Shown piece by piece: positions 4,285 to 27,761 of a stretch of 64,000 nt of DNA. The translations under genes and the position numbers were made by a program. The DNA is from Balneolales bacterium. Lineage in GTDB: Bacteria; Bacteroidota; Rhodothermia; Balneolales; HLUCCA01. The stretch covers positions 278,104 through 342,103 of the forward strand of contig JBGTBY010000035.1 of the NCBI GenBank assembly GCA_041749075.1, in the 5' to 3' direction. Positions within the stretch are counted from its first letter, which is position 1, and each line of letters opens with the position of its first letter. The notes below the pieces were generated by a model. It did no database searches and was not told the origin of the DNA. It saw nothing but the letters and a program-made list of their open reading frames with translations.

Positions 4285-5286
4285 TTATCGCATGGTCATC
4301 CGCCACCAGGCTTTCGGCAGAATTTTCAGCTTTTGCGTGGTGGTCAGATACGCCCGATGTTCGTACACCTGATAGGTGTTCGATTCGATCACATCCAAAA
4401 TGCGGCTGTAATTTTCACGGGCGAGAATCACTGGAAGTCTGGAATCGGCTTTCAACATGGAAATTCCCTCGTCCGCCGACTCGTAATAGCGACGTGCTCT
4501 TGCGATTTGGAATTCCATCAACGCCTTGAAACGATCGTCGTTCACATGTTGGAACAGGTCGAGCTCGGTCAGTCCGAATCGATCCAGATCTTCTTGTGGA
4601 ATGTAGATGCGATTGCGGTTGAGATCCTCCCCGATATCGCGCAGGATGTTGGTCAATTGCATCGCAATACCCAAATCGATGGCATGGGTGATGGCACGGC
4701 GATCATCGTATCCGAAGACCTCGGATGTCATGAGTCCCACGACAGATGCCACTTTATAGGCATAGTCATACAATTCATCAAAGGTCTGATATCGATTCTT
4801 GACCAAATCCATGCACACGCCTTCCATCAATTCCATTGGATGACGGATGGGGATGTGAAACGTCTTCAGCGTATCGGAAAATGCCAAAAGAATGAGATTG
4901 TCGGAATGCTTCGTTTCATAAGCTTCTTCCAGTTTCATCTTGAAATCGGTGATTACCGCATCCAGATTGTGTCGTTCCACGCGGGAATTGGTGATGAGAT
5001 CTTCGGCTTCATCGATCAGATCGTCTACATATCGGCATAGGCCGTAAATCGCGAAAATACTCCGTTGTTTCTCCGTTGGCAGGAATCGTGTGGCCAAATA
5101 GAAGGTTTTCGCATGCTCACGCGTGATATGGCGACAATGGGCATAGGCGTTACGCAAATCGATATCGTCCAATTCGTCAATCACACGGGTGTGGATGGAC
5201 GTTTTCTCATACACCGGACGCAGCATTTGATAAGGCAAACGCAGCAGACTCGAAGAAGAGGAAGGTTGGGTGATCGGTTGGCTCAT
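4285..5286 (-). CDS. Phytoene/squalene synthase family protein
   Basis: HCRHITREHAKTFYLATRFLP, Asp-rich YVDDLIDE and a second block DIGEDLNRNRIYIPQEDL. The ORF track begins at a TTG (5319); I prefer the ATG at 5284-5286 (MSQPITQ...). Confidence 0.8.
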   Translation of the reverse strand: MSQPITQPSSSSSLLRLPYQMLRPVYEKTSIHTRVIDELDDIDLRNAYAHCRHITREHAKTFYLATRFLPTEKQRSIFAIYGLCRYVDDLIDEAEDLITNSRVERHNLDAVITDFKMKLEEAYETKHSDNLILLAFSDTLKTFHIPIRHPMELMEGVCMDLVKNRYQTFDELYDYAYKVASVVGLMTSEVFGYDDRRAITHAIDLGIAMQLTNILRDIGEDLNRNRIYIPQEDLDRFGLTELDLFQHVNDDRFKALMEFQIARARRYYESADEGISMLKADSRLPVILARENYSRILDVIESNTYQVYEHRAYLTTTQKLKILPKAWWRMTMR

Positions 5287-5308
5287 AAAAAATAGGCTTT
5301 TAGCACAT

Positions 5309-5327
5309 AATGCATTCAAAATGCATT
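5309..5327. promoter_or_regulatory. Twin palindromic octamers AATGCATT (5309-5316 and 5320-5327); candidate operator in a divergent promoter region
   Basis: Two identical self-complementary 8-mers spaced 11 bp start to start, lying between the phytoene-synthase-like gene (minus) and the LacI-type regulator (plus). Confidence 0.3.
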
Positions 5328-5404
5328 TCGTTCCGGCGTATATTGCGCCCTATTGTGCTATTCTGCCGCCTCAGATGAAAAGTACACAGAAAGAACCCCA
5401 TCCT

Positions 5405-6415
5405 ATGCCAAAAAAAATCACGATTTACGATGTAGCCAAACGAGCAGGTGTGGCCATTTCAACGGTTTCGCGGGTGCTGAACCAATCGCCATATGTGTCG
5501 GATGAGACCAAGGCGCGCGTCGATTCCGCTATCCGGGATTTGGAATTTTATCCGCAAGCGAACGCTAGGAAATTAGCTAAACGGGAGCCTCAGATCATTT
5601 CTGTGGCTGTACCCACGTTTACGACTCCGTTCTTCAATGAAGTGCTTAAAGGCGTCAAAGATGAAATCAAATCGATGGATTTGGATTTCATCATCTACAA
5701 TACCGGTTCAGACAACCCGGAAAAGCATTTCGAACAGTTTCTGGAGAAAGGCATTCCGGATGCGTTGATCATTTTTTCGATCGAAATCACGGATTTCATC
5801 CATCGCCGCATCAAAGATCTTCCGATTCCGGTGGTATTGGTCGGTGCCGACCACCCCGATTACGATTACATCCACTGGGATAACTACCGCGGCGGTTTTC
5901 TCGCGGCCGAACACCTGATAAAGCAAGGGTTTAAGAAAATCGGGATGATTCGTCCGCATACCATTTCCAAAATCTCCGATCTGCGTGAACGTGGATTCCG
6001 CGACGCCTTGCGCGAATATGGCATTCCGATGGATGAAGACTGCCTCGTGAGCGGCATCACCCGCAAGCACGCAGGATTCAGCGAAGAAGCCGGTCACGAA
6101 GCCATTCAAATCCTCAAACACCGCAACAAAATTCCCGAAGCGCTATTCTGCTCGAACGACGCCCAAGCCCTAGGAGCGATGTACGCTTTGAAAGAACTCG
6201 GATTACGTGTTCCTGAGGATGTGGCCATCATGGGTTACGACAATATCAAAATCGCCCGTTATCTGGAACTGACCACTATCGATCAGAAAATGTACCAAGT
6301 GGGCCGGCAAGCCATTCAGCGCATCGCCACGCTGTTTCAAAATCCAGAAGCCGAGCCGTTGAAAGACAAAGTGACCCCAGAACTCCTTATCCGCAAATCG
6401 ACGTCCCGTGGCTAA
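5405..6415 (+). CDS. LacI-family transcriptional regulator
   Basis: N-terminal HTH ITIYDVAKRAGVAISTVSRVLN followed by a periplasmic-binding-protein-like sugar-binding fold. ATG at 5405 preferred (an in-frame ATG at 5375 is also possible). The 3' end overlaps the purC start by 8 nt. Confidence 0.85.
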   Translation: MPKKITIYDVAKRAGVAISTVSRVLNQSPYVSDETKARVDSAIRDLEFYPQANARKLAKREPQIISVAVPTFTTPFFNEVLKGVKDEIKSMDLDFIIYNTGSDNPEKHFEQFLEKGIPDALIIFSIEITDFIHRRIKDLPIPVVLVGADHPDYDYIHWDNYRGGFLAAEHLIKQGFKKIGMIRPHTISKISDLRERGFRDALREYGIPMDEDCLVSGITRKHAGFSEEAGHEAIQILKHRNKIPEALFCSNDAQALGAMYALKELGLRVPEDVAIMGYDNIKIARYLELTTIDQKMYQVGRQAIQRIATLFQNPEAEPLKDKVTPELLIRKSTSRG

Positions 6416-9072: not shown

Positions 9073-9666
9073 TTACAGGCGCTTAATCGTGCAACCGAGG
9101 GCGCGAGAGGTCGCCGTTGTGATGGCTTCACCTTTCGACAACTGACTCAATGCGTCTTTGATGAAGTATTTCTCAACCGCAGCGCGGTCGCGGCTGTTAT
9201 CGTCAATAGCCCCTACGAACACCAATTTGTTGCTTTTGTCGAGCAAGTAGACATGTGGCGTGCGAGTCGCGCCGTATGCATCCGCCAAACGATGGTCCTT
9301 GTCGAGCGCGTAGGTGAAGGCATAACCGAGGTCGGCATGACGTTTTTTCATGTCCGCCATCGACTCCCCATCCTTGCGGGTGGCTTCGTTCGGATTCACA
9401 TAAACAACTCCAACTCCATTGGCCGCAGCCAATTGAGCTACTTCGTTATAACGATTTTCCCAGGCATGCACCCAAGGACACGTATTGCTTGTGAAAATGA
9501 GCAGCGTTCCGTTTTCCTTTTTGATGTCGGCCAAAGAAACCTGCTTTCCATCGGTCGTTTCCATCTTGTAGTCCAACATCGGACCCGTTTTTCCGATCTC
9601 GAGTTCTTTCACATCCACCGAAGTGGTGGCAAGCAATGCGATTGCGGCAAGTATGATAAGTTTCAT
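9073..9666 (-). CDS. Secreted thioredoxin-fold protein (PRX-like/AhpC-TSA-like, single-Cys CPWV motif)
   Basis: Signal peptide MKLIILAAIALLATTS. FTSNTCPWVHAW sits in the position of a CxxC motif but has only the first Cys. Confidence 0.65.
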   Translation of the reverse strand: MKLIILAAIALLATTSVDVKELEIGKTGPMLDYKMETTDGKQVSLADIKKENGTLLIFTSNTCPWVHAWENRYNEVAQLAAANGVGVVYVNPNEATRKDGESMADMKKRHADLGYAFTYALDKDHRLADAYGATRTPHVYLLDKSNKLVFVGAIDDNSRDRAAVEKYFIKDALSQLSKGEAITTATSRALGCTIKRL

Positions 9667-10163
9667 GGTGTGATCGCGTTTTGGATATGGGTTTTGAATG
9701 TGTCGTAATCTGCCGGTAACTCAAAGAACGTTACAAGTCGTCCGTTCTTGTCATAGACCACTGTGGCGGGCATAGCACCCGTCCAATCAGGATGAATCGC
9801 AAGAATAAACGGTTCATCTTTGCCGTCGTTGATGTACGTCTGCCAATCGACCTTCTGTTCCTGAAGAAAGGTTTCGACTCGTGGCAGTTGATCTGGAAAG
9901 TCAGCAGAAATGAACACCACTTCCACTTGGTCTTTGAATTCCTCTCTCAATCTCACGAGATAGGGAAATTCTTCGACGCAGGGCACACACCACGTGGCCC
10001 ATACATTCACCAGAACGGCTTTCTCACCCACGAATGAGGTGAGTAAAGCAGGTATCGCCTCAGGCTGCAATGGCAGCACCGGTTTGATTGCTGTGTTCGC
10101 TTTGGGCGCGCAGGTTGCGACCAATAGCAAAACAATCGCCGATAGGAACAGATGATATCTCAT
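9663..10163 (-). CDS. TlpA/ResA-family thiol:disulfide oxidoreductase
   Basis: Signal/lipoprotein-like N-terminus and the WATWCVPCVEEFP (WCxxC) motif. 4-nt overlap with the downstream gene. Confidence 0.8.
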   Translation of the reverse strand: MRYHLFLSAIVLLLVATCAPKANTAIKPVLPLQPEAIPALLTSFVGEKAVLVNVWATWCVPCVEEFPYLVRLREEFKDQVEVVFISADFPDQLPRVETFLQEQKVDWQTYINDGKDEPFILAIHPDWTGAMPATVVYDKNGRLVTFFELPADYDTFKTHIQNAITP

Positions 10164-10167
10164 GATT

Positions 10168-10890
10168 TCAAGAAACCGTTTTTCCGGATTCTTCGCTGTA
10201 AAATCTTGTTTGGGATGTCTTCAACACCTCAGACAAAGCTCGATAAGCGGCTTTCAGAGACGGGTGTCCGTCGAGCATCGACAGATGCTTCGCTATCGTC
10301 TCCATATCGCCACGTGATGCGGGACCTGTCCGCGCGTCCATCGCCCCTGCGGTTTGGATGTTTAGTAACGTTTGCTGCATCAATCGTTCGAATAAGACAG
10401 AGGATGTTTGATCGATGCCGGCTTCATGCAGAATCTCATCCGCTCCCATATGAAGCGCTACAGTGAAGTTGGAAACCATCACAGCGGCCAAATGGATGAC
10501 TCTTTTTTGGTCAATGGTGACACGTAATGGGTTACCGCCGATCTCTGTCGCCAGCGTTTCTAGGGTGTTTAACAGTGATTCATCCCCTTCCAAAGATATT
10601 CCGCAGCCATGAAACACATCCGCACCGGCTCCGGATCGAATCGCTTGAATGGGATGCATCGAGGCTTTCGGGCCATTTCCAGCGAGTATGGACGATGGAT
10701 TTGTGCCGGATGTGTGCACCATCGGCAGTCCAGCATAAGTCGAGGACACCTGTGCGATCACATCATCCGGAACGCAAAGAAACAGGAGTTCTGGTGTGAG
10801 ATGAACATCCACTACATCATGTCCGGCAATGGTTAAGGCCTTTTCAAGCGCGGTCCCAACCTTCCCTTTGCCGATGATGGCGATGCGCAT
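10168..10890 (-). CDS. Rossmann-like plus DUF2520-type oxidoreductase (PanG-like family)
   Basis: MRIAIIGKGKVGTAL dinucleotide fold. C-terminal blocks HLAAVMVSNF and RTGPASRGD are typical of DUF2520 proteins. Confidence 0.6.
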   Translation of the reverse strand: MRIAIIGKGKVGTALEKALTIAGHDVVDVHLTPELLFLCVPDDVIAQVSSTYAGLPMVHTSGTNPSSILAGNGPKASMHPIQAIRSGAGADVFHGCGISLEGDESLLNTLETLATEIGGNPLRVTIDQKRVIHLAAVMVSNFTVALHMGADEILHEAGIDQTSSVLFERLMQQTLLNIQTAGAMDARTGPASRGDMETIAKHLSMLDGHPSLKAAYRALSEVLKTSQTRFYSEESGKTVS

Positions 10891-13657: not shown

Positions 13658-14884
13658 ATGGATGTCATTGGATTCATCGCACTGAGGTATTTCACGGGAA
13701 AACGGAAAGGAGCCTCCTTCCTCTCCTTCGCCAAGATCATATCGGTGACAGGAGTTGCGGTCGGCAGCGCGGGTTTGTTGATCGCGCTATCCGTGGTGCA
13801 TGGATTCAAATCGACGATTCAAGACAAGATCCTCGGCTTCGGAACGCATATATCGATCACATCCATCGCCGATACGCCCTTGTATCGTGCCGATAGTCTG
13901 ATCGCCCACATCCAGAATTGGCCCGAGATCGAATCCATCCAGCCGGTGATTTACGGACAAGTGATGATCCAGCATAAGGACAACGTGGAAGGCACCTTCA
14001 TGAAAGGCGTGTCTGAAGCCGGGGATGTGACCGACCTCAAATCGTACATCCGAAGTGGGGCCTACGACCTGACCACAAACGAGGACGGTATCAGCGGGAT
14101 GGTGATCGGATCCAAGCTTGCAGGGAATCTCGGCGCGGAGCCCGGAAGCCTCATCACGCTCTACGCGGTTCGTGGGATGCCTTCGGCACGCAACCTTCCC
14201 GAATTGCGACGTTTTCGGATCACCGGCATCTACGAAACCGGAATCGACCGATTCGATGATGTCTTCGTACTCGTGTCGGAATTCCATGCGCGCCAATTGC
14301 TTGACATGCCATATCCCACCGCGCATCAAGTAGACATTCGCCTTCGATCGATTTCAGAGATTCCGGCTGTCGAAGAAAAATTAGATCGAATTGTGATGTT
14401 CCCTTACATGGCGGAAACCGTGTACATCCGGTATTCAAACATCTTCGCTTGGGTCAATCTCCAAGAACAAACCGTACCCTTGGTGATCGGAGTGATGATC
14501 ATCATCGCCGCGTTCAATTTAATCGGAACGGTTCTGATGATGGTGTTGGAGCGAGTCAGGGATATCGGCATCCTGAAAACCATGGGCGCGACGACGCAGC
14601 AAATCCGCAAGATATTTCTGATGGAAGGACTGATCGTGGGAATCGTCGGGATCACGATCGGTATCGGCATCGCGGTGCTTTTCAGTTGGTTGCAGGGCAC
14701 CTACGGCATCATTCCACTCGACCAAGAGAACTATTACATGAGCACCGCACCGGTGGAGCCACAGATGCTAGATTATGTGTGGGTCAGCGTGGTATCGATT
14801 CTGCTGTGCGGATTGGCCTCTTGGCTGCCAGCGAACGTGGCATCAAAGATTGACCCGCTGAATGTGATCCACTTCGGGCGGTGA
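13658..14884 (+). CDS. LolC/LolE-type ABC transporter permease (FtsX-like)
   Basis: 408 aa. N-terminal TM, large periplasmic domain and a C-terminal FtsX-type 3-TM bundle (ILKTMGATTQQIRKIF). Confidence 0.85.
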   Translation: MDVIGFIALRYFTGKRKGASFLSFAKIISVTGVAVGSAGLLIALSVVHGFKSTIQDKILGFGTHISITSIADTPLYRADSLIAHIQNWPEIESIQPVIYGQVMIQHKDNVEGTFMKGVSEAGDVTDLKSYIRSGAYDLTTNEDGISGMVIGSKLAGNLGAEPGSLITLYAVRGMPSARNLPELRRFRITGIYETGIDRFDDVFVLVSEFHARQLLDMPYPTAHQVDIRLRSISEIPAVEEKLDRIVMFPYMAETVYIRYSNIFAWVNLQEQTVPLVIGVMIIIAAFNLIGTVLMMVLERVRDIGILKTMGATTQQIRKIFLMEGLIVGIVGITIGIGIAVLFSWLQGTYGIIPLDQENYYMSTAPVEPQMLDYVWVSVVSILLCGLASWLPANVASKIDPLNVIHFGR

Positions 14885-23154: not shown

Positions 23155-24312
23155 TCAGGGCGTTCCTTGCACCACCGAATACTCCTGTCTATTGGTTTCT
23201 AGCAGCATCCATACCTTGCCAGAGGCACCTCGATGCATGCGAATGGTCGAGCCCCAAAGCTGTCCATAAGGCCATGTTGGACTTGGTTCGATTTTGCGGT
23301 AGTCCATTCCGTTCCAATGCCAAATCTGATAACGTGCCGCTCGGATCCAAATATCATTCGGTGAGAATACGCTGATCTGCCAAGCCGATTGTCTCATGGC
23401 CCATAACGGTAAATCATCATTCTTAAGGTTGTGTTTTTCAAAAGAGAGAGTTTGTCCTAGCGACTCAAAACGGAACGACTCCCATCCGGTCAAATACAGG
23501 TTAAGCGAATCCGTGCGATTGCAGCGGAATGCGGCGAGGTCGGTGATGTTTCCCTCCGCTTCTGGTACGTGGATGGGTAGTCCTGATGGTATTAGAGAAT
23601 CCATTAGTTTGATCCACTCACCATTGTGCAATTTCCATAGTTGATTTAGCGGTTCGCTCAACTGTGTGTATTTGAACGCATGGATATAGATCTCATTCTT
23701 TGTTATTCCACTTATCTTAGCTAATTGGTAATCGGTTGGAGCTAATGCGTAAACCCAATCAGCAGTATAACCGTCTTTTGTATAGGTCATGCCGTTATCG
23801 CCGGTTGCCATGAAAAAGCCTTTACCATCCGTCCAAACAGACCTCAACCCACCAATTGTCTGATATTGAAAACCCATCCATTTCTTGGTTCGGTTATCAA
23901 ATTCTGCCAACCCTGCTTTCGGATTATTTAGGTCGTAGAGTCCAACAGATACCATAAAGCTTTTGTCCCCAGTAAGATCATTGGAATAGTGCCGGATGTC
24001 GTTTTCAATTGAGCCATGGATATCCCCCGACCATTCACTTCCGTTCCAGTGTAACCCTGCAAAAAAGCGACGCTCGCCATCTTCAACTTTCCACAATCGT
24101 CCCATCACATACGCATCATCATCGGCGAATGCCCAAATACCTCCGAGAGTGGATGAAAAAACGGCCACCGAATCCGTCCTCCATGTGAAATCTCGATTGC
24201 CCGATGAGTAATTGCAATCGGGGAAAGGGATAGGTCCGGTGATGTCGGGTTTGCAGGAGGCGATAGTTATAACAATCCCGAGAGCGAAAATGATTGGATG
24301 TCTCTTTCCCAT
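23155..24312 (-). CDS. Hypothetical lipoprotein, probable beta-propeller-like repeat protein
   Basis: Lipobox VITIASC. Recurrent W/G-rich blades (IWAFADDDAYVMG, VWTDGKGFFMATGDNG, IWIRAARYQIWHWNG, VWMLLE). Its stop codon directly abuts the tsaC stop. Confidence 0.5.
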   Translation of the reverse strand: MGKRHPIIFALGIVITIASCKPDITGPIPFPDCNYSSGNRDFTWRTDSVAVFSSTLGGIWAFADDDAYVMGRLWKVEDGERRFFAGLHWNGSEWSGDIHGSIENDIRHYSNDLTGDKSFMVSVGLYDLNNPKAGLAEFDNRTKKWMGFQYQTIGGLRSVWTDGKGFFMATGDNGMTYTKDGYTADWVYALAPTDYQLAKISGITKNEIYIHAFKYTQLSEPLNQLWKLHNGEWIKLMDSLIPSGLPIHVPEAEGNITDLAAFRCNRTDSLNLYLTGWESFRFESLGQTLSFEKHNLKNDDLPLWAMRQSAWQISVFSPNDIWIRAARYQIWHWNGMDYRKIEPSPTWPYGQLWGSTIRMHRGASGKVWMLLETNRQEYSVVQGTP

Positions 24313-24903
24313 TTACCTACTCCCCGGCGGTGGGAGATAATACCGCACTCCTAAGGTGAGTCTCATTCCACTGAAATCATCAAAGTACTCCGGATACTCT
24401 TCATGCCTCATATTTCGGATGGCATGTGTTGTGAAAACAACCGGGAAGTTGGGCAGTTTCTTTTCTAATCCAATTCCACCGAAACCACCAAAGAGAAAGT
24501 TTCCAATTGCCTTTCCTGGTGGATTCCCACTATTCGGATAGGTCATATTCCCGTCGAGCCGTGCTATACCCCCAAGAAGATCAACGGTCATCTCATATGG
24601 TATCGGAATACCATATTTGAATCCAACCTGAAGCATTTTCATATCGACCAAACGCCCTTGATCTTTGAAGAAATAGGAAACGATACCAAACATATAGAGA
24701 CGTCTGGAGAGTGGAAATCCAACACTTGCGCCTAGGATGGACCCATAAGGAGTTCCATAGGTGTCTTCAAAAAAGTCAGCTGGCACCACATAAATCCCAC
24801 CATCCACAGAAAAAAAAGCAGATGCGGGTGGAGCCTTTTGGGCGTGTAATGGACTCGCAAAAATGAGTGCGAGGAAGAGTAGAATGGTGCGGTTCAGGGG
24901 CAT
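24313..24903 (-). CDS. Hypothetical small outer-membrane beta-barrel protein
   Basis: Signal peptide ending LHAQ, alternating hydrophobic/aromatic beta-strand pattern, Gly-rich turns, near-C-terminal LTLGVRYY. Its stop TAA is immediately followed by the lipoprotein ATG. Confidence 0.5.
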   Translation of the reverse strand: MPLNRTILLFLALIFASPLHAQKAPPASAFFSVDGGIYVVPADFFEDTYGTPYGSILGASVGFPLSRRLYMFGIVSYFFKDQGRLVDMKMLQVGFKYGIPIPYEMTVDLLGGIARLDGNMTYPNSGNPPGKAIGNFLFGGFGGIGLEKKLPNFPVVFTTHAIRNMRHEEYPEYFDDFSGMRLTLGVRYYLPPPGSR

Positions 24904-24966: not shown

Positions 24967-26049
24967 TTACGGATTCATCACCAGCACATCCACTATTTCC
25001 CCGGGAATGAGATCCAAATGACCCAATCCATCCAGACTGATTCTCACCGGAATCCCACTTTCGATGAAGCCCGATCCGCGTTGCAAGTTCGCATCATAGA
25101 TCATGATCTGCGCTCCTGTCCGATCGATCACGGCTTCGGCGATCTGCTTCGGATATGTCCGAGTTCGGATTTGCACGATCATCCCGATGTGCGGTTTGAT
25201 GGATATCGGTTGGCGGATGTAGCCGATAATGTGGGTCGGTGTCGGTGATGCGATCAACACCAGCGGGACTCCCCCATTCAGGTATGCGCCGTTCTGGACA
25301 AACACTTTTACTACGGTTCCGCTGATGGGGGCGATCAGCACTGTCGGCTTGAATTCCTGATACGCTTCTTCCATCTCTGCTTCTAGGGCAGAAATGCCTA
25401 AAGTAACGGGATCACTAGCGGATGAACTACCCGACTCGTACTTGACCAAGCGCTGCATCTCGCGTTCCATATCGGCGATGAGTGATTTCTTCGCTTCATA
25501 TGCACTGGTTACCAGCGATAATTCCAAGGTCGAATCTTCCAATTCCTGCGCGGAAATCAGATTCTTCTCGAACAATTCCGTCATTCGCTCGGTCGTGCGA
25601 AGCAATTGGATGCGACGGATATTCAACGATTCGAACTCGATCGTTTCATTGATCACATCCAATTGAAGCGAAATGAGGTCGATGCGATTCCGTTGCAAGT
25701 CCGAGATTGGTTCTTGCGTGGCTTTCATCAACTCGATCTGTGTGCGAAACACATCCAGCTTGGCCTGCAGCATGGCGCTGTCGGCCACGGCAACGGTGGC
25801 GATCACATCCCCCGCTTGCACCACGTCAAATTCTTGAAGTGTAAATCCCTGAACTTGACCGGTCAGGGGTGCGCTCACGTACGCGGTGTCGGCCACGACT
25901 TTTCCGACGAAAGAGGATTGCTGCGTCTTGTTTCCCCATAGTGATATGACGATCACCAATACCACGACAAAGGTGATGACCGGAACGAACCGGGTTCTGA
26001 ATTCCCGCAGTTTTTGGCGGAAGGGGATTTGAATGGGTTGCATGCTCAT
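24967..26049 (-). CDS. HlyD-family periplasmic adaptor (membrane fusion protein)
   Basis: 360 aa. N-terminal TM FVPVITFVVVLVIVISLW, a lipoyl-like half (VSAPLTGQV...AGDVIA), a long coiled-coil segment, a second lipoyl half (IAPISGTVVKV) and a beta-barrel. ATGA overlap with the upstream DUF4956 gene. Confidence 0.8.
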   Translation of the reverse strand: MSMQPIQIPFRQKLREFRTRFVPVITFVVVLVIVISLWGNKTQQSSFVGKVVADTAYVSAPLTGQVQGFTLQEFDVVQAGDVIATVAVADSAMLQAKLDVFRTQIELMKATQEPISDLQRNRIDLISLQLDVINETIEFESLNIRRIQLLRTTERMTELFEKNLISAQELEDSTLELSLVTSAYEAKKSLIADMEREMQRLVKYESGSSSASDPVTLGISALEAEMEEAYQEFKPTVLIAPISGTVVKVFVQNGAYLNGGVPLVLIASPTPTHIIGYIRQPISIKPHIGMIVQIRTRTYPKQIAEAVIDRTGAQIMIYDANLQRGSGFIESGIPVRISLDGLGHLDLIPGEIVDVLVMNP

Positions 26050-26732
26050 ACTTCGGACTCGTCTTCGGTGAGCATCGAACTGACGGAATGCACGCCACGA
26101 ATGGACTTCATTTCATTGACGAGGATGTCGATTTTGGATGGATCCCGCAACCGCAAGCGGTACGATAGAAAGACCCCATCCGTCCCCTCACGCACGCGTT
26201 CGGTCACTTTCACCCATTTGATGCTGTGCCGATGCAGCAACGGAACGAGCGTCCAGTCTTGGTCGGCCGGCTCATCATATTGAAGATTCAGAATGAGGTC
26301 AAAGCGTTGGCGCGATCCGAAGTTCGTGAACCATATATATAAGAAGGCGGTGGACATCGTGAGTGTCCCCACGATCGCCGTTGTGAATTTTTGTGTTCCG
26401 GATGCGAGCCCGATCACAATCAATGTGAGGATGTAGACCGTGTCCAAGGTGTCGCGCAGGATGTTCCGGAAGCGGACGATCGCGAAAACCGCAAGCAAGC
26501 TGAACGCGGTGACGATGTTGTTATCGAGCACCATCATCACCATCGAAACGGTAATGGGAATGATGATGAGCGAACTCACGAAGGATCGTGAATAGGACAA
26601 ACCCGAATGGGTGTACATGTAGATCCAAGCGAGGATCTGCCCGCAAAGAAATGCGAGCAGCAGGGCCATGACCAGCGTGGGCAGGTCTGTTGGAATCGGT
26701 GCCGTATCACCGAAGCGAAACCAATCATTCAT
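26046..26732 (-). CDS. DUF4956-domain membrane protein
   Basis: Start ATG 26730-26732 (MNDWFRF..., ATGA overlap with the VTC gene). About 4 TMs, the conserved FAIVRFRNILRDTLD block, and a C-terminal soluble domain. Confidence 0.8.
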   Translation of the reverse strand: MNDWFRFGDTAPIPTDLPTLVMALLLAFLCGQILAWIYMYTHSGLSYSRSFVSSLIIIPITVSMVMMVLDNNIVTAFSLLAVFAIVRFRNILRDTLDTVYILTLIVIGLASGTQKFTTAIVGTLTMSTAFLYIWFTNFGSRQRFDLILNLQYDEPADQDWTLVPLLHRHSIKWVKVTERVREGTDGVFLSYRLRLRDPSKIDILVNEMKSIRGVHSVSSMLTEDESEV

Positions 26733-27490
26733 CCGTAATTCCCGATAGCGACATTTTGTGGATAGTGCAACATCACCAATCCGGCGGCATATTTCGCGGC
26801 CGATTCGGGATGCAAGTGAAACGTCTGCACGATGTCTTGAAACCAATTCGGATACCGATCTGTGAACTTCAGTTCCAAAATCACCAAGTTTCCGAAAACA
26901 GAAACAGGTTCGAGGGTTTTAACCGAGTATCGGATGTCGTGTTGGATGGCGGATGTCACGTGACGGTCGAAGGTGACCCGGATGCTGTTTCCTACGTCAC
27001 TCTGGTACGCCTCTCTCATATAAGAGACATGAGTGCGGGGCGTCGCATCGAGCTCGTTGCGAAGGTGGCAAAAATATTGAAGTGCGGAAAGCTGCTCCGG
27101 GGTCTGCATCAACAAATGTGACAAAACGGGCGTCTGACCTGCGACCAATTCTTCGACTGATTCGCGATGAACGATGGCACGTCGCTTCGTGATGACTTTG
27201 TCGTGGCGACGTTTCACTTCCAAGTAAACCGGCTTCCCTTCCCCGTTGTCATAGTATCGGATGCGGAGTTTGTATCGGTTGCGGTTGCCATTGATGGTGT
27301 CGCGGTAGGTGTCGAGGTCGGGCGAGTCGAGATAGATGCTATGAACAGCGTAAGACAAGTTGTGCTGAGTGGCGCCGAAGCGGTCTACATCCAGATAGGA
27401 TTCCACGAATTGGCGGATCTGTAATGCCGTATGCTCCGATGTCAGATACTTGTATTCGAATCGTTGGCGTTGGAGCGAGGTGTCTGACAT
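26729..27490 (-). CDS. VTC-domain protein (polyphosphate-polymerase-type triphosphate tunnel fold)
   Basis: Start ATG 27488-27490 (MSDTSLQRQRFEYKYL). Tunnel-strand motifs RFEYKY, LRIRYY, LEVKRR, IRVTFD and ILELKF. Confidence 0.85.
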   Translation of the reverse strand: MSDTSLQRQRFEYKYLTSEHTALQIRQFVESYLDVDRFGATQHNLSYAVHSIYLDSPDLDTYRDTINGNRNRYKLRIRYYDNGEGKPVYLEVKRRHDKVITKRRAIVHRESVEELVAGQTPVLSHLLMQTPEQLSALQYFCHLRNELDATPRTHVSYMREAYQSDVGNSIRVTFDRHVTSAIQHDIRYSVKTLEPVSVFGNLVILELKFTDRYPNWFQDIVQTFHLHPESAAKYAAGLVMLHYPQNVAIGNYG

Positions 27491-27607
27491 GGATGAGTGA
27501 TGGTGCCGTTTATGGGTCTGAAGACGTGTGGAAAAGATAACAATTCCGTAACGTGGCGACAAAGTTCAAAGGATTTGAGTTTTCATATCAAAAATGCGGA
27601 TTCTGGT

Positions 27608-27637
27608 TTGACTGATGTGGCTCTGAAACCGTATATT
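27608..27637 (+). promoter_or_regulatory. Sigma-70-like promoter for tRNA-Asn
   Basis: TTGACT (27608-27613), 17-18-nt spacer, GTATAT/TATATT (27631-27637). About 12 nt upstream of the mature tRNA 5' end. Confidence 0.5.
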
Positions 27638-27648
27638 TGTGGCTCTAT

Positions 27649-27720
27649 TCCTCGGTAGCTCAATGGCAGAGCATGCGGCTGTTAACCGCAGGGTTGCTGG
27701 TTCGAGTCCAGCCCGGGGAG
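27649..27720 (+). tRNA. tRNA-Asn (anticodon GTT)
   Basis: TCCTCGG acceptor pairs with CCGGGGA. D-arm GCTCAATGGCAGAGC, anticodon loop CT-GTT-AA, T-arm GCTGGTTCGAGTCCAGC, discriminator G. Confidence 0.92.
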
Positions 27721-27727
27721 CAGATTC

Positions 27728-27761
27728 AGGGACTGATGTGAAAGCGTCGGTCCCTTTTTTT
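27728..27761 (+). terminator. Rho-independent terminator after tRNA-Asn
   Basis: GGGACUGAUG-UGAAAG-CGUCGGUCCC stem followed by 7 T (27755-27761). Confidence 0.8.

Follow-up and report, generated by a model that had tools for sequence, protein, structure and literature searches.

A conserved trio of VTC-domain, DUF4956 and HlyD-type adaptor genes in Balneolales: a candidate envelope machine for polyphosphate synthesis and export

Three adjacent minus-strand genes were analysed in a 64,000-nucleotide stretch of the genome of a Balneolales bacterium (contig JBGTBY010000035.1, positions 278,104 to 342,103 of the forward strand), and the whole of this stretch is called the window here. They encode a VTC-domain protein (26729..27490; 253 amino acids (aa) from ATG, PF09359), a DUF4956 membrane protein (26046..26732; 228 aa, PF16316) and an EmrA/HlyD-type periplasmic adaptor (24967..26049; 360 aa, HlyD_3). 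The trio is a real and conserved module, and neither its three-part architecture nor a bacterial VTC/CotH-polyphosphate export system is described in the searchable full-text literature, most subscription journals being outside it; the absence of such a described system had been part of the original prediction, which was made from the sequence alone. All three parts belong to catalogued families, and what is new is the way in which they are conserved together, with the function which this implies. The best reading of the trio is that of one envelope machine coupling polyphosphate (polyP) synthesis to polyP export. We hold this reading tentatively, because the enzyme activity, the formation of a pore, the contacts among the three proteins and the export itself are all inferred, as are the conduit role of DUF4956, the docking on TolC and the nature of the exported substance.

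A gene order kept across phyla

The three genes had been predicted to be joined by ATGA start/stop overlaps, and this was confirmed by the open reading frames (ORFs) and by direct reading of the minus strand. The stop (TGA) of the VTC gene overlaps the start (ATG) of the DUF4956 gene at 26729..26732, and the DUF4956 stop overlaps the adaptor start at 26046..26049. Longer TTG-initiated ORFs are also possible for the VTC and DUF4956 genes, but the ATG starts are preferred because they give proteins as long as the homologues, hundreds of which measure 247-254 aa (VTC) or 228 aa (DUF4956).

A scan of a genome collection anchored on DUF4956 gave 79 loci from Balneolales, Rhodothermaceae, Verrucomicrobiota (Opitutales, Pedosphaera and Limisphaerales) and Kiritimatiellae, and their ORFs were searched with hidden Markov models (HMMs) built from VTC, DUF4956 and adaptor homologues. 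Among the loci with enough sequence on the relevant side or sides, VTC was found upstream of DUF4956 in 74/74, the adaptor downstream of DUF4956 in 67/73, and the complete trio in 61/67. This order is beyond chance because it recurs in 61 of 67 loci of several phyla with differing flanks. The gap between VTC and DUF4956 has a median of 18 nucleotides (nt) and is at most 40 nt in 69/79 cases, and that between DUF4956 and the adaptor has a median of 2 nt (at most 5 nt in 57/71 cases); the ATGA overlaps of the window and this tight spacing elsewhere suggest that the three proteins are produced together. Across the 79 loci no gene other than the trio members was a constant neighbour, and no ATP-binding cassette (ABC), major facilitator superfamily (MFS) or resistance-nodulation-division (RND) transporter constantly accompanied the trio. 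The phylum counts rest on the better-labelled records, and several labels of metagenome-assembled genomes (MAGs) disagree with locus content: the loci L006, L007, L044 and L048, labelled 'Chitinophagales', and L069 and L080, labelled 'Akkermansia muciniphila', have contents of Balneolales type or of environmental Verrucomicrobiota type. Cultured carriers of the trio include Gracilimonas mengyeensis DSM 21985 (L045), Rhodohalobacter sulfatireducens WB101 (L012) and Aliifodinibius sp. S!AR15-10.

The neighbourhood holds from the side of the adaptor as well. A word-indexed search anchored on the adaptor retrieved 16 homologues, a small number because the adaptor diverges fast, and the contexts at 75, 45, 37 and 28% identity all (4/4) carried VTC, DUF4956 and adaptor in the same order between unrelated flanks. 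These conservation data effectively exclude the explanation that the adaptor works with a conventional pump for drug efflux or type I secretion at another locus and is a chance neighbour of the VTC-DUF4956 pair, an explanation that we consider extremely improbable. It could draw on the EmrA fold of the adaptor, on source annotations reading 'multidrug resistance efflux pump', and on a divergent RND operon that lies beside the trio in L003, L015, L017 and L029. Against it, the adaptor follows DUF4956 directly in 67/73 loci across phyla with the median gap of 2 nt, every adaptor context examined is a trio, and the neighbouring RND operons carry an adaptor of their own, so that the pairing of this adaptor with a conventional transporter, which would have spoken against the original prediction, was not seen. 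No MFS, ABC or RND gene adjoins the trio in the window either; a Pfam scan of the window confirmed the predicted lack of any such pump within about 9 kb, and the closest gene of transporter type encodes a LolC/E-type FtsX/MacB_PCD permease (13658-14884) and lies on the opposite strand, about 10 kb off.

When more distant DUF4956 clusters were sampled (n=6), an HlyD-like gene came next in 4/6 (L087-L090; 81-142 bits with the adaptor HMM, Pfam HlyD_3). In another distant cluster, L085, the adaptor is absent and CotH takes the third position.

The enzyme, the membrane protein and the adaptor

The assignments of the three proteins to the VTC, DUF4956 and HlyD families agree with HMM searches. The VTC protein matches PF09359 at E=7.6e-42 with 143.9 bits (cut-off 23) over profile positions 2-235 of 235, and the five strand motifs noted earlier (RFEYKY, LRIRYY, LEVKRR, IRVTFD and ILELKF) are all present in the translation. 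In Pfam the VTC domain stands alone at residues 10-242, with no SPX domain in the 253-aa protein. The protein has no signal peptide and should thus be cytoplasmic, with access to ATP. Searches of the Protein Data Bank (PDB) with the single VTC or DUF4956 sequences gave only noise, and family profiles were used instead. The VTC profile of 48 homologues matched yeast Vtc4 (3G3Q) at E=1.1e-10 and Vtc2 and Vtc3 more weakly; these three were the only matches at E<0.05, the sole other one being an FMN-dependent azoreductase at E=0.45. A profile-sequence alignment by hhalign covered 194 columns of the Vtc4 catalytic core, including the C-terminal strands, with a probability of 94.9%.

A cryo-EM study of the VTC complex has identified K200, R264, R266, K281, R361, K458, S457 and Y359 as triphosphate ligands required for polyP synthesis, E426 as a Mn2+ ligand, and K458 as the sole residue replaced in the inactive Vtc2 and Vtc3 (bioRxiv 10.1101/2023.01.27.525886). 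The residues K200, R264, R266, K281, Y359, R361, E426 and K458 of Vtc4 are equivalent to K14, R76, R78, K93, Y157, R159, E206 and K233 of the window protein, and K294 and R373 to K102 and R171. Each of these ten window residues is invariant in 76/76 distinct VTC proteins, and the basic tunnel residues on which the original prediction depended (K14, R76, R78, K93, R159 and K233) are therefore retained. With this residue pattern, the VTC protein is probably an active Vtc4-type polyP polymerase.

DUF4956 is the most conserved member of the trio, with a mean column identity of 77% over 38 homologues. It matches PF16316 (E=7.2e-12, 45.8 bits, cut-off 30.6) and no other Pfam family, and at 50% identity this family falls into 4482 clusters, almost all of them stand-alone proteins of about 225-235 aa. 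The AlphaFold2 (AF2) model, which is of low confidence, places five transmembrane (TM) helices at residues 17-137 (nt 26322-26684) and, C-terminal to them, a beta-alpha-beta-beta-alpha-beta domain of ACT-like type at residues 146-221 (nt 26070-26297). The protein had been described as having four TM helices and a soluble tail; the tail is borne out as the ACT-like domain, and the helix count is replaced by five. Foldseek gave weak ACT/NikR-C-type matches for the C-terminal domain (E about 4e-3) and no match for the membrane part, and the family profile had no match in the PDB. MgtC is like DUF4956 in size and in its five helices and ACT-like domain; neither Pfam, searched up to E=10, nor the PDB gave an MgtC match for DUF4956. 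The invariant clusters of DUF4956 are D70-N71-N72, V86-R87-F88-R89-N90, R93-D94-T95, G112-T113-Q114-K115 (GTQKF) and R141/R143, and its invariant polar and basic residues are placed at the membrane interfaces. Following the positive-inside rule, the N-terminus of the modelled protein would be periplasmic, and the Arg-rich loops and the ACT-like domain would face the cytoplasm, and with it the VTC protein. The protein ends in an acidic tail, EDESEV (26046-26066); in 38 homologues its E225, S226 and E227 never vary and its E223 hardly does, and this tail could be a contact for the basic VTC tunnel or for the basic N-tail of the adaptor. DUF4956 may be the conduit of the system, and any likeness to Vtc1 would be functional at most.

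The adaptor is matched in Pfam by HlyD_3 (2e-8, 35.4 bits, cut-off 22.2) and, slightly under the 30-bit cut-off, by HlyD_D23 (4.7e-7, 29.7 bits). Its best NCBIfam match is of EmrA/EmrK type (TIGR00998; 6e-18, 64.9 bits, far under the cut-off of 390.8). The AF2 model, with a predicted local distance difference test score (pLDDT) of 82, consists of a helix at residues 10-42, a lipoyl domain, an alpha-hairpin and a beta-barrel, and has no membrane-proximal domain. The arms of the hairpin span residues of about 91-161 and 167-233, about 70 residues each, and the earlier description of an inner-membrane-anchored HlyD-type adaptor with a long coiled coil is in accordance with this model. The best Foldseek match was EmrA in EmrAB-TolC (8ZAL, E=4.9e-19), with EmrA 4TKO also matched and then MacA, ZneB, AcrA and MexA. 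Between relatives the adaptor keeps an identity of about 30-35% where DUF4956 keeps 60-75%. In 69 adaptor sequences 30 positions are conserved at 90% or more, and 5 of these 30 fall in the short cytoplasmic tail and TM helix, where P9, R18, P23, F27 and W38 are conserved at 97% or more. No other stretch of the adaptor is as well conserved as the tail and TM helix, and this suggests a fixed partner in the inner membrane or cytoplasm. The hairpin tip carries the motif R155-x3-L159-x6-S166 (25552..25587), located by alignment and by its position in the model, at the loop between the model helices 117-161 and 167-205. All 69 adaptors have R155 and carry L, M or I at position 159, and 64 of the 69 have S, A or T at position 166. 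The spacing agrees with that of the RLS/RLT-type motif R-x3-L-x6-S/T, which binds the aperture tip of TolC in MacA, AcrA, MexA and HlyD (PMC3391258).

The proposed coupled machine and its alternatives

In the mechanism that we propose, the cytoplasmic VTC protein would transfer the gamma-phosphate of ATP onto a chain growing in its basic tunnel. On the cytoplasmic side, the invariant Arg-rich loops and the ACT-like domain of a five-helix DUF4956 oligomer would take up the chain, and the oligomer would move it through the inner membrane. The EmrA-type adaptor, whose conserved N-tail and TM helix would anchor it next to DUF4956, would form a periplasmic tube whose RLS-tipped hairpins dock on a TolC-family channel encoded elsewhere, and the polymer would thereby arrive at the surface of the cell or in the medium. 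A gene adjacent to the trio in many relatives encodes a CotH kinase that leaves the cell through the type IX secretion system (T9SS) and that probably acts on the exported product or together with it.

Some contexts in relatives were counted in favour of the coupled machine. In L088 a TolC-family OEP gene (4720-6324, minus strand; PF02321, 2.4e-14) runs convergently to the adaptor gene and overlaps its end, the sole such case seen. The AT-rich relative L091 has, after DUF4956, a gene for an inorganic pyrophosphatase (843-1424; PF00719, 4e-31) with a hydrophobic, signal-peptide-like N-terminus and then one for a 400-aa multi-pass membrane protein, the contig being too short upstream for VTC. 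The adaptor-less L085 with CotH in third place was counted likewise, together with the Gram-positive cotH-PPP-DUF4956 set, which as published lists no adaptor.

Several observations weigh against the coupled machine, and some of them concern the enzyme. The equivalent of S457, whose mutation reduces polyP synthesis in yeast (bioRxiv 10.1101/2023.01.27.525886), is Ala232 in the window protein, and among the 76 VTC proteins it is Ala in 72, Ser in 2 and Pro in 2. Strand beta-1 reads R10-F-E12-Y-K14 (window 27449-27463), and its Glu12, invariant in 76/76, stands where Vtc4 has Thr198. The ExExK motif is typical of hydrolytic CYTH enzymes, and CYTH/TTM enzymes are chemically diverse. The R-x-E-x-K of beta-1 keeps half of this motif and is reminiscent of it. 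No published assay of any bacterial VTC protein was found, and papers from 2023-2026 treat VTC4 as eukaryotic and credit bacterial polyP to PPK1 and PPK2. The VTC protein could thus be a tunnel metalloenzyme other than a polymerase, such as a tripolyphosphatase, polyphosphatase or NTPase, in an energising or regulatory role, and the trio a new tripartite transporter or signalling unit with an unrelated DUF4956 substrate. The two substitutions, the lack of an assayed bacterial protein and the dissimilarity of DUF4956 and Vtc1 would all fit this account, which we nevertheless judge unlikely. The family match extends over the full length, the PDB profile matches at E<0.05 are only Vtc4, Vtc2 and Vtc3, and all basic triphosphate ligands are kept, including the equivalent of K458 that marks active against inactive paralogues. 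The pyrophosphatase beside DUF4956 in L091 also fits a phosphoanhydride chemistry outside the cytoplasm.

Further observations that tell against coupling and export concern the membrane and periplasmic parts. The AF2 model of the DUF4956 monomer is poor (pLDDT 64.5, predicted template modelling score 0.40), DUF4956 has no detectable similarity in sequence or fold to the Vtc1/DUF202 channel or to any transporter, and no Vtc1-containing entry is among the 50 Foldseek matches listed for its model. No genuine fusion of the partners was found, the best 150 representatives of the DUF4956 family included; an apparent DUF4956-adaptor fusion in L044 was rejected as a run of N, and the 595-aa protein P0346 as a frameshift read-through. 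No gene for an outer-membrane factor (OEP) lies in the window or in the searched flanks of most loci, and a general linkage of OEP genes to the trio was rejected, such genes being found only within the neighbouring RND operon of one subclade and once beside the trio. The six loci (6/73) without a downstream adaptor all come from MAGs labelled as Verrucomicrobiota type. Four of them have no adaptor in the flanks, and in L070, L072 and L078 a glycosyltransferase follows DUF4956 instead. The other two encode divergent, hairpin-less adaptor homologues of 240 aa upstream of VTC (L079:5328-6050 and L080:5337-6059, minus strand), in which the TM helix, lipoyl domain and beta-barrel are all that remains. 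Because these six loci lack the adaptor or have a hairpin-less form, their gene content indicates that the adaptor, or its docking on TolC, is not essential to the VTC-DUF4956 pair.

These exceptions would be expected if VTC and DUF4956 alone made polyP and left it as a periplasmic store or on the outward side of the inner membrane, with the adaptor only scaffolding, gating or stabilising the DUF4956 oligomer, without a link to an outer-membrane channel and with no secretion. The pair occurs in 74/74 loci, 6/73 diderm loci have no adaptor or one without the hairpin, the adaptor evolves fast beside DUF4956, and no OEP gene lies in the window or beside most loci. Even so we find such a deposit without secretion rather improbable. 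The hairpin is long, the conserved TolC-binding tip motif in 69 adaptors is hard to explain without an outer-membrane partner, and the OEP gene of L088 adjoins the trio. Genes of tolC type are, besides, commonly unlinked from their pumps, as for emrAB, acrAB and macAB of E. coli.

The original prediction of a synthesis and export module, in which DUF4956 is the conduit and the adaptor takes the polymer on to an exit in the outer membrane, is thus partly supported. Its families, neighbourhood, tunnel residues and novelty stand, its four TM helices become five, and the conduit and carrier roles are inferred ones. Loss of the neighbourhood in relatives, loss of the catalytic residues and pairing of the adaptor with a conventional transporter had each been named in advance as refuting it, and all three were looked for and none was found. 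The recurrent CotH partner was absent from that interpretation.

Genomic setting, CotH partner and known systems

The trio lies among ordinary chromosomal genes and is flanked on one side by mfd, sua5 and VWA/DUF58 genes and on the other by tRNA-Asn, truA, a DUF5683 gene and ccmFEC. The tRNA-Asn (GTT; 27649-27721, plus strand) is divergent from the trio, and the interval from the VTC start to it (27491..27648) is the presumed promoter region of the trio, by position only. Scans of the trio locus for sigma-70 consensus promoters and for terminators did no better than shuffles. A strong terminator-like hairpin of 12 pairs with a T-run follows the tRNA-Asn at 27728-27755. Between the adaptor and sua5 (23155-24903, minus strand) lie genes for a 196-aa protein with a signal-peptide-like N-terminus and a 385-aa lipoprotein-like protein, the start of the latter abutting the stop of the former. 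Neither protein has a match in Pfam, NCBIfam or PADLOC or a homologue among about 85 related loci, and both were rejected as the outer-membrane exit on the grounds of lacking a family match and a homologue in related loci. In the relative L001 (75% identity) the adaptor is directly followed by sua5/mfd. Because they have no homologue in any locus and are missing from the syntenic L001, the two genes look like a local, lineage-specific insertion relative to L001 and not like components of the module. An anti-phage defence system was also considered and rejected, PADLOC giving zero matches for any of the five proteins. In L003 a 400-aa ATP-grasp-like protein (9104-10327) adjoins the trio, with homologues in L004, L015, L017, L029 and L054; it is absent from the window, and the proteins of this kind in one subclade are 68-72% identical among six loci.

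CotH proteins of about 1000 aa are encoded directly beside the trio and on the same strand in about 23/82 loci, all of Balneolales type, and they combine a lamin-tail domain, a CotH kinase domain and a T9SS C-terminal sorting domain. Examples are L030:4501-7554 and L009:2753-6028, and L011, L012 and L022 are also among these loci; in L022 one CotH gene lies between two complete copies of the trio. CotH also occurs in L085, L089 and L090, and no CotH gene lies within the 64-kb window. Whitfield et al. reported cotH, a 'poly-phosphate polymerase', DUF4956 and DUF4832 as an accessory set beside Gram-positive pel loci (bioRxiv 10.1101/768473), and this report was the one link found in the searchable literature. 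The trio-adjacent CotH genes link the trio to this uncharacterised CotH-VTC-DUF4956 set of Gram-positives, and the CotH partner may be central to the biology of the trio. The two share the VTC-DUF4956 pair. In the published set no HlyD-type adaptor is listed, whereas the diderm loci analysed here have the adaptor as their constant third gene and CotH, with its lamin-tail and T9SS sorting domains, as an optional one. It is conceivable, though we regard it as doubtful, that exported polyP is the substrate or phosphoryl donor of secreted CotH kinases in a compartment free of ATP, and that the trio would be the first bacterial machine to secrete an inorganic polymer during its synthesis.

As compared to the eukaryotic VTC complex of yeast vacuoles and acidocalcisomes, the trio has in common the PF09359 domain with its triphosphate and Mn2+ residues, including the K458 equivalent, and the genetic tie of the enzyme to a dedicated membrane protein. 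By analogy with VTC, for which this has been shown, such a tie suggests that synthesis is coupled to membrane transit. The eukaryotic complex differs in having an SPX domain, which the trio enzyme lacks, and a three-helix Vtc1/DUF202 membrane part in place of DUF4956 with its five helices and ACT-like domain. The catalytic domain of the trio is free and not fused to the membrane part, Ser457 and Thr198 of Vtc4 are Ala and Glu in the trio enzyme, and a periplasmic adaptor is added. With EmrAB-TolC and HlyBD-TolC the trio shares the TM anchor, lipoyl domain, long alpha-hairpin and beta-barrel, the RLS/RLT tip motif and the lack of a membrane-proximal domain; it differs from them in having DUF4956 and VTC as partners instead of an MFS, ABC or RND transporter, and in the hairpin-less form of some relatives. 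In the synthase-dependent secretion of cellulose, alginate, Pel and PNAG, synthesis of the polymer at the inner membrane is tied to its translocation, and dedicated periplasmic parts connect to an outer-membrane exit. The logic proposed for the trio is, by analogy, the same, except that its polymer would be inorganic, its enzyme a tunnel-fold phosphotransferase rather than a glycosyltransferase, and its periplasmic part an efflux-type adaptor rather than TPR and porin proteins.

No export route for bacterial polyP was found in the searchable literature. If the coupled machine is correct, the trio would add a third bacterial route to polyP, and it would bring a new class of substrate and a new inner-membrane partner to the tripartite envelope-spanning systems. 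It would also give a testable function to DUF4956, a family of more than 4000 clusters at 50% identity, and to the non-sporulating CotH kinases. If the proposed link between CotH and polyP holds as well, it would explain the widespread CotH-VTC-DUF4956 set and the origin of the surface and extracellular polyP of bacteria.

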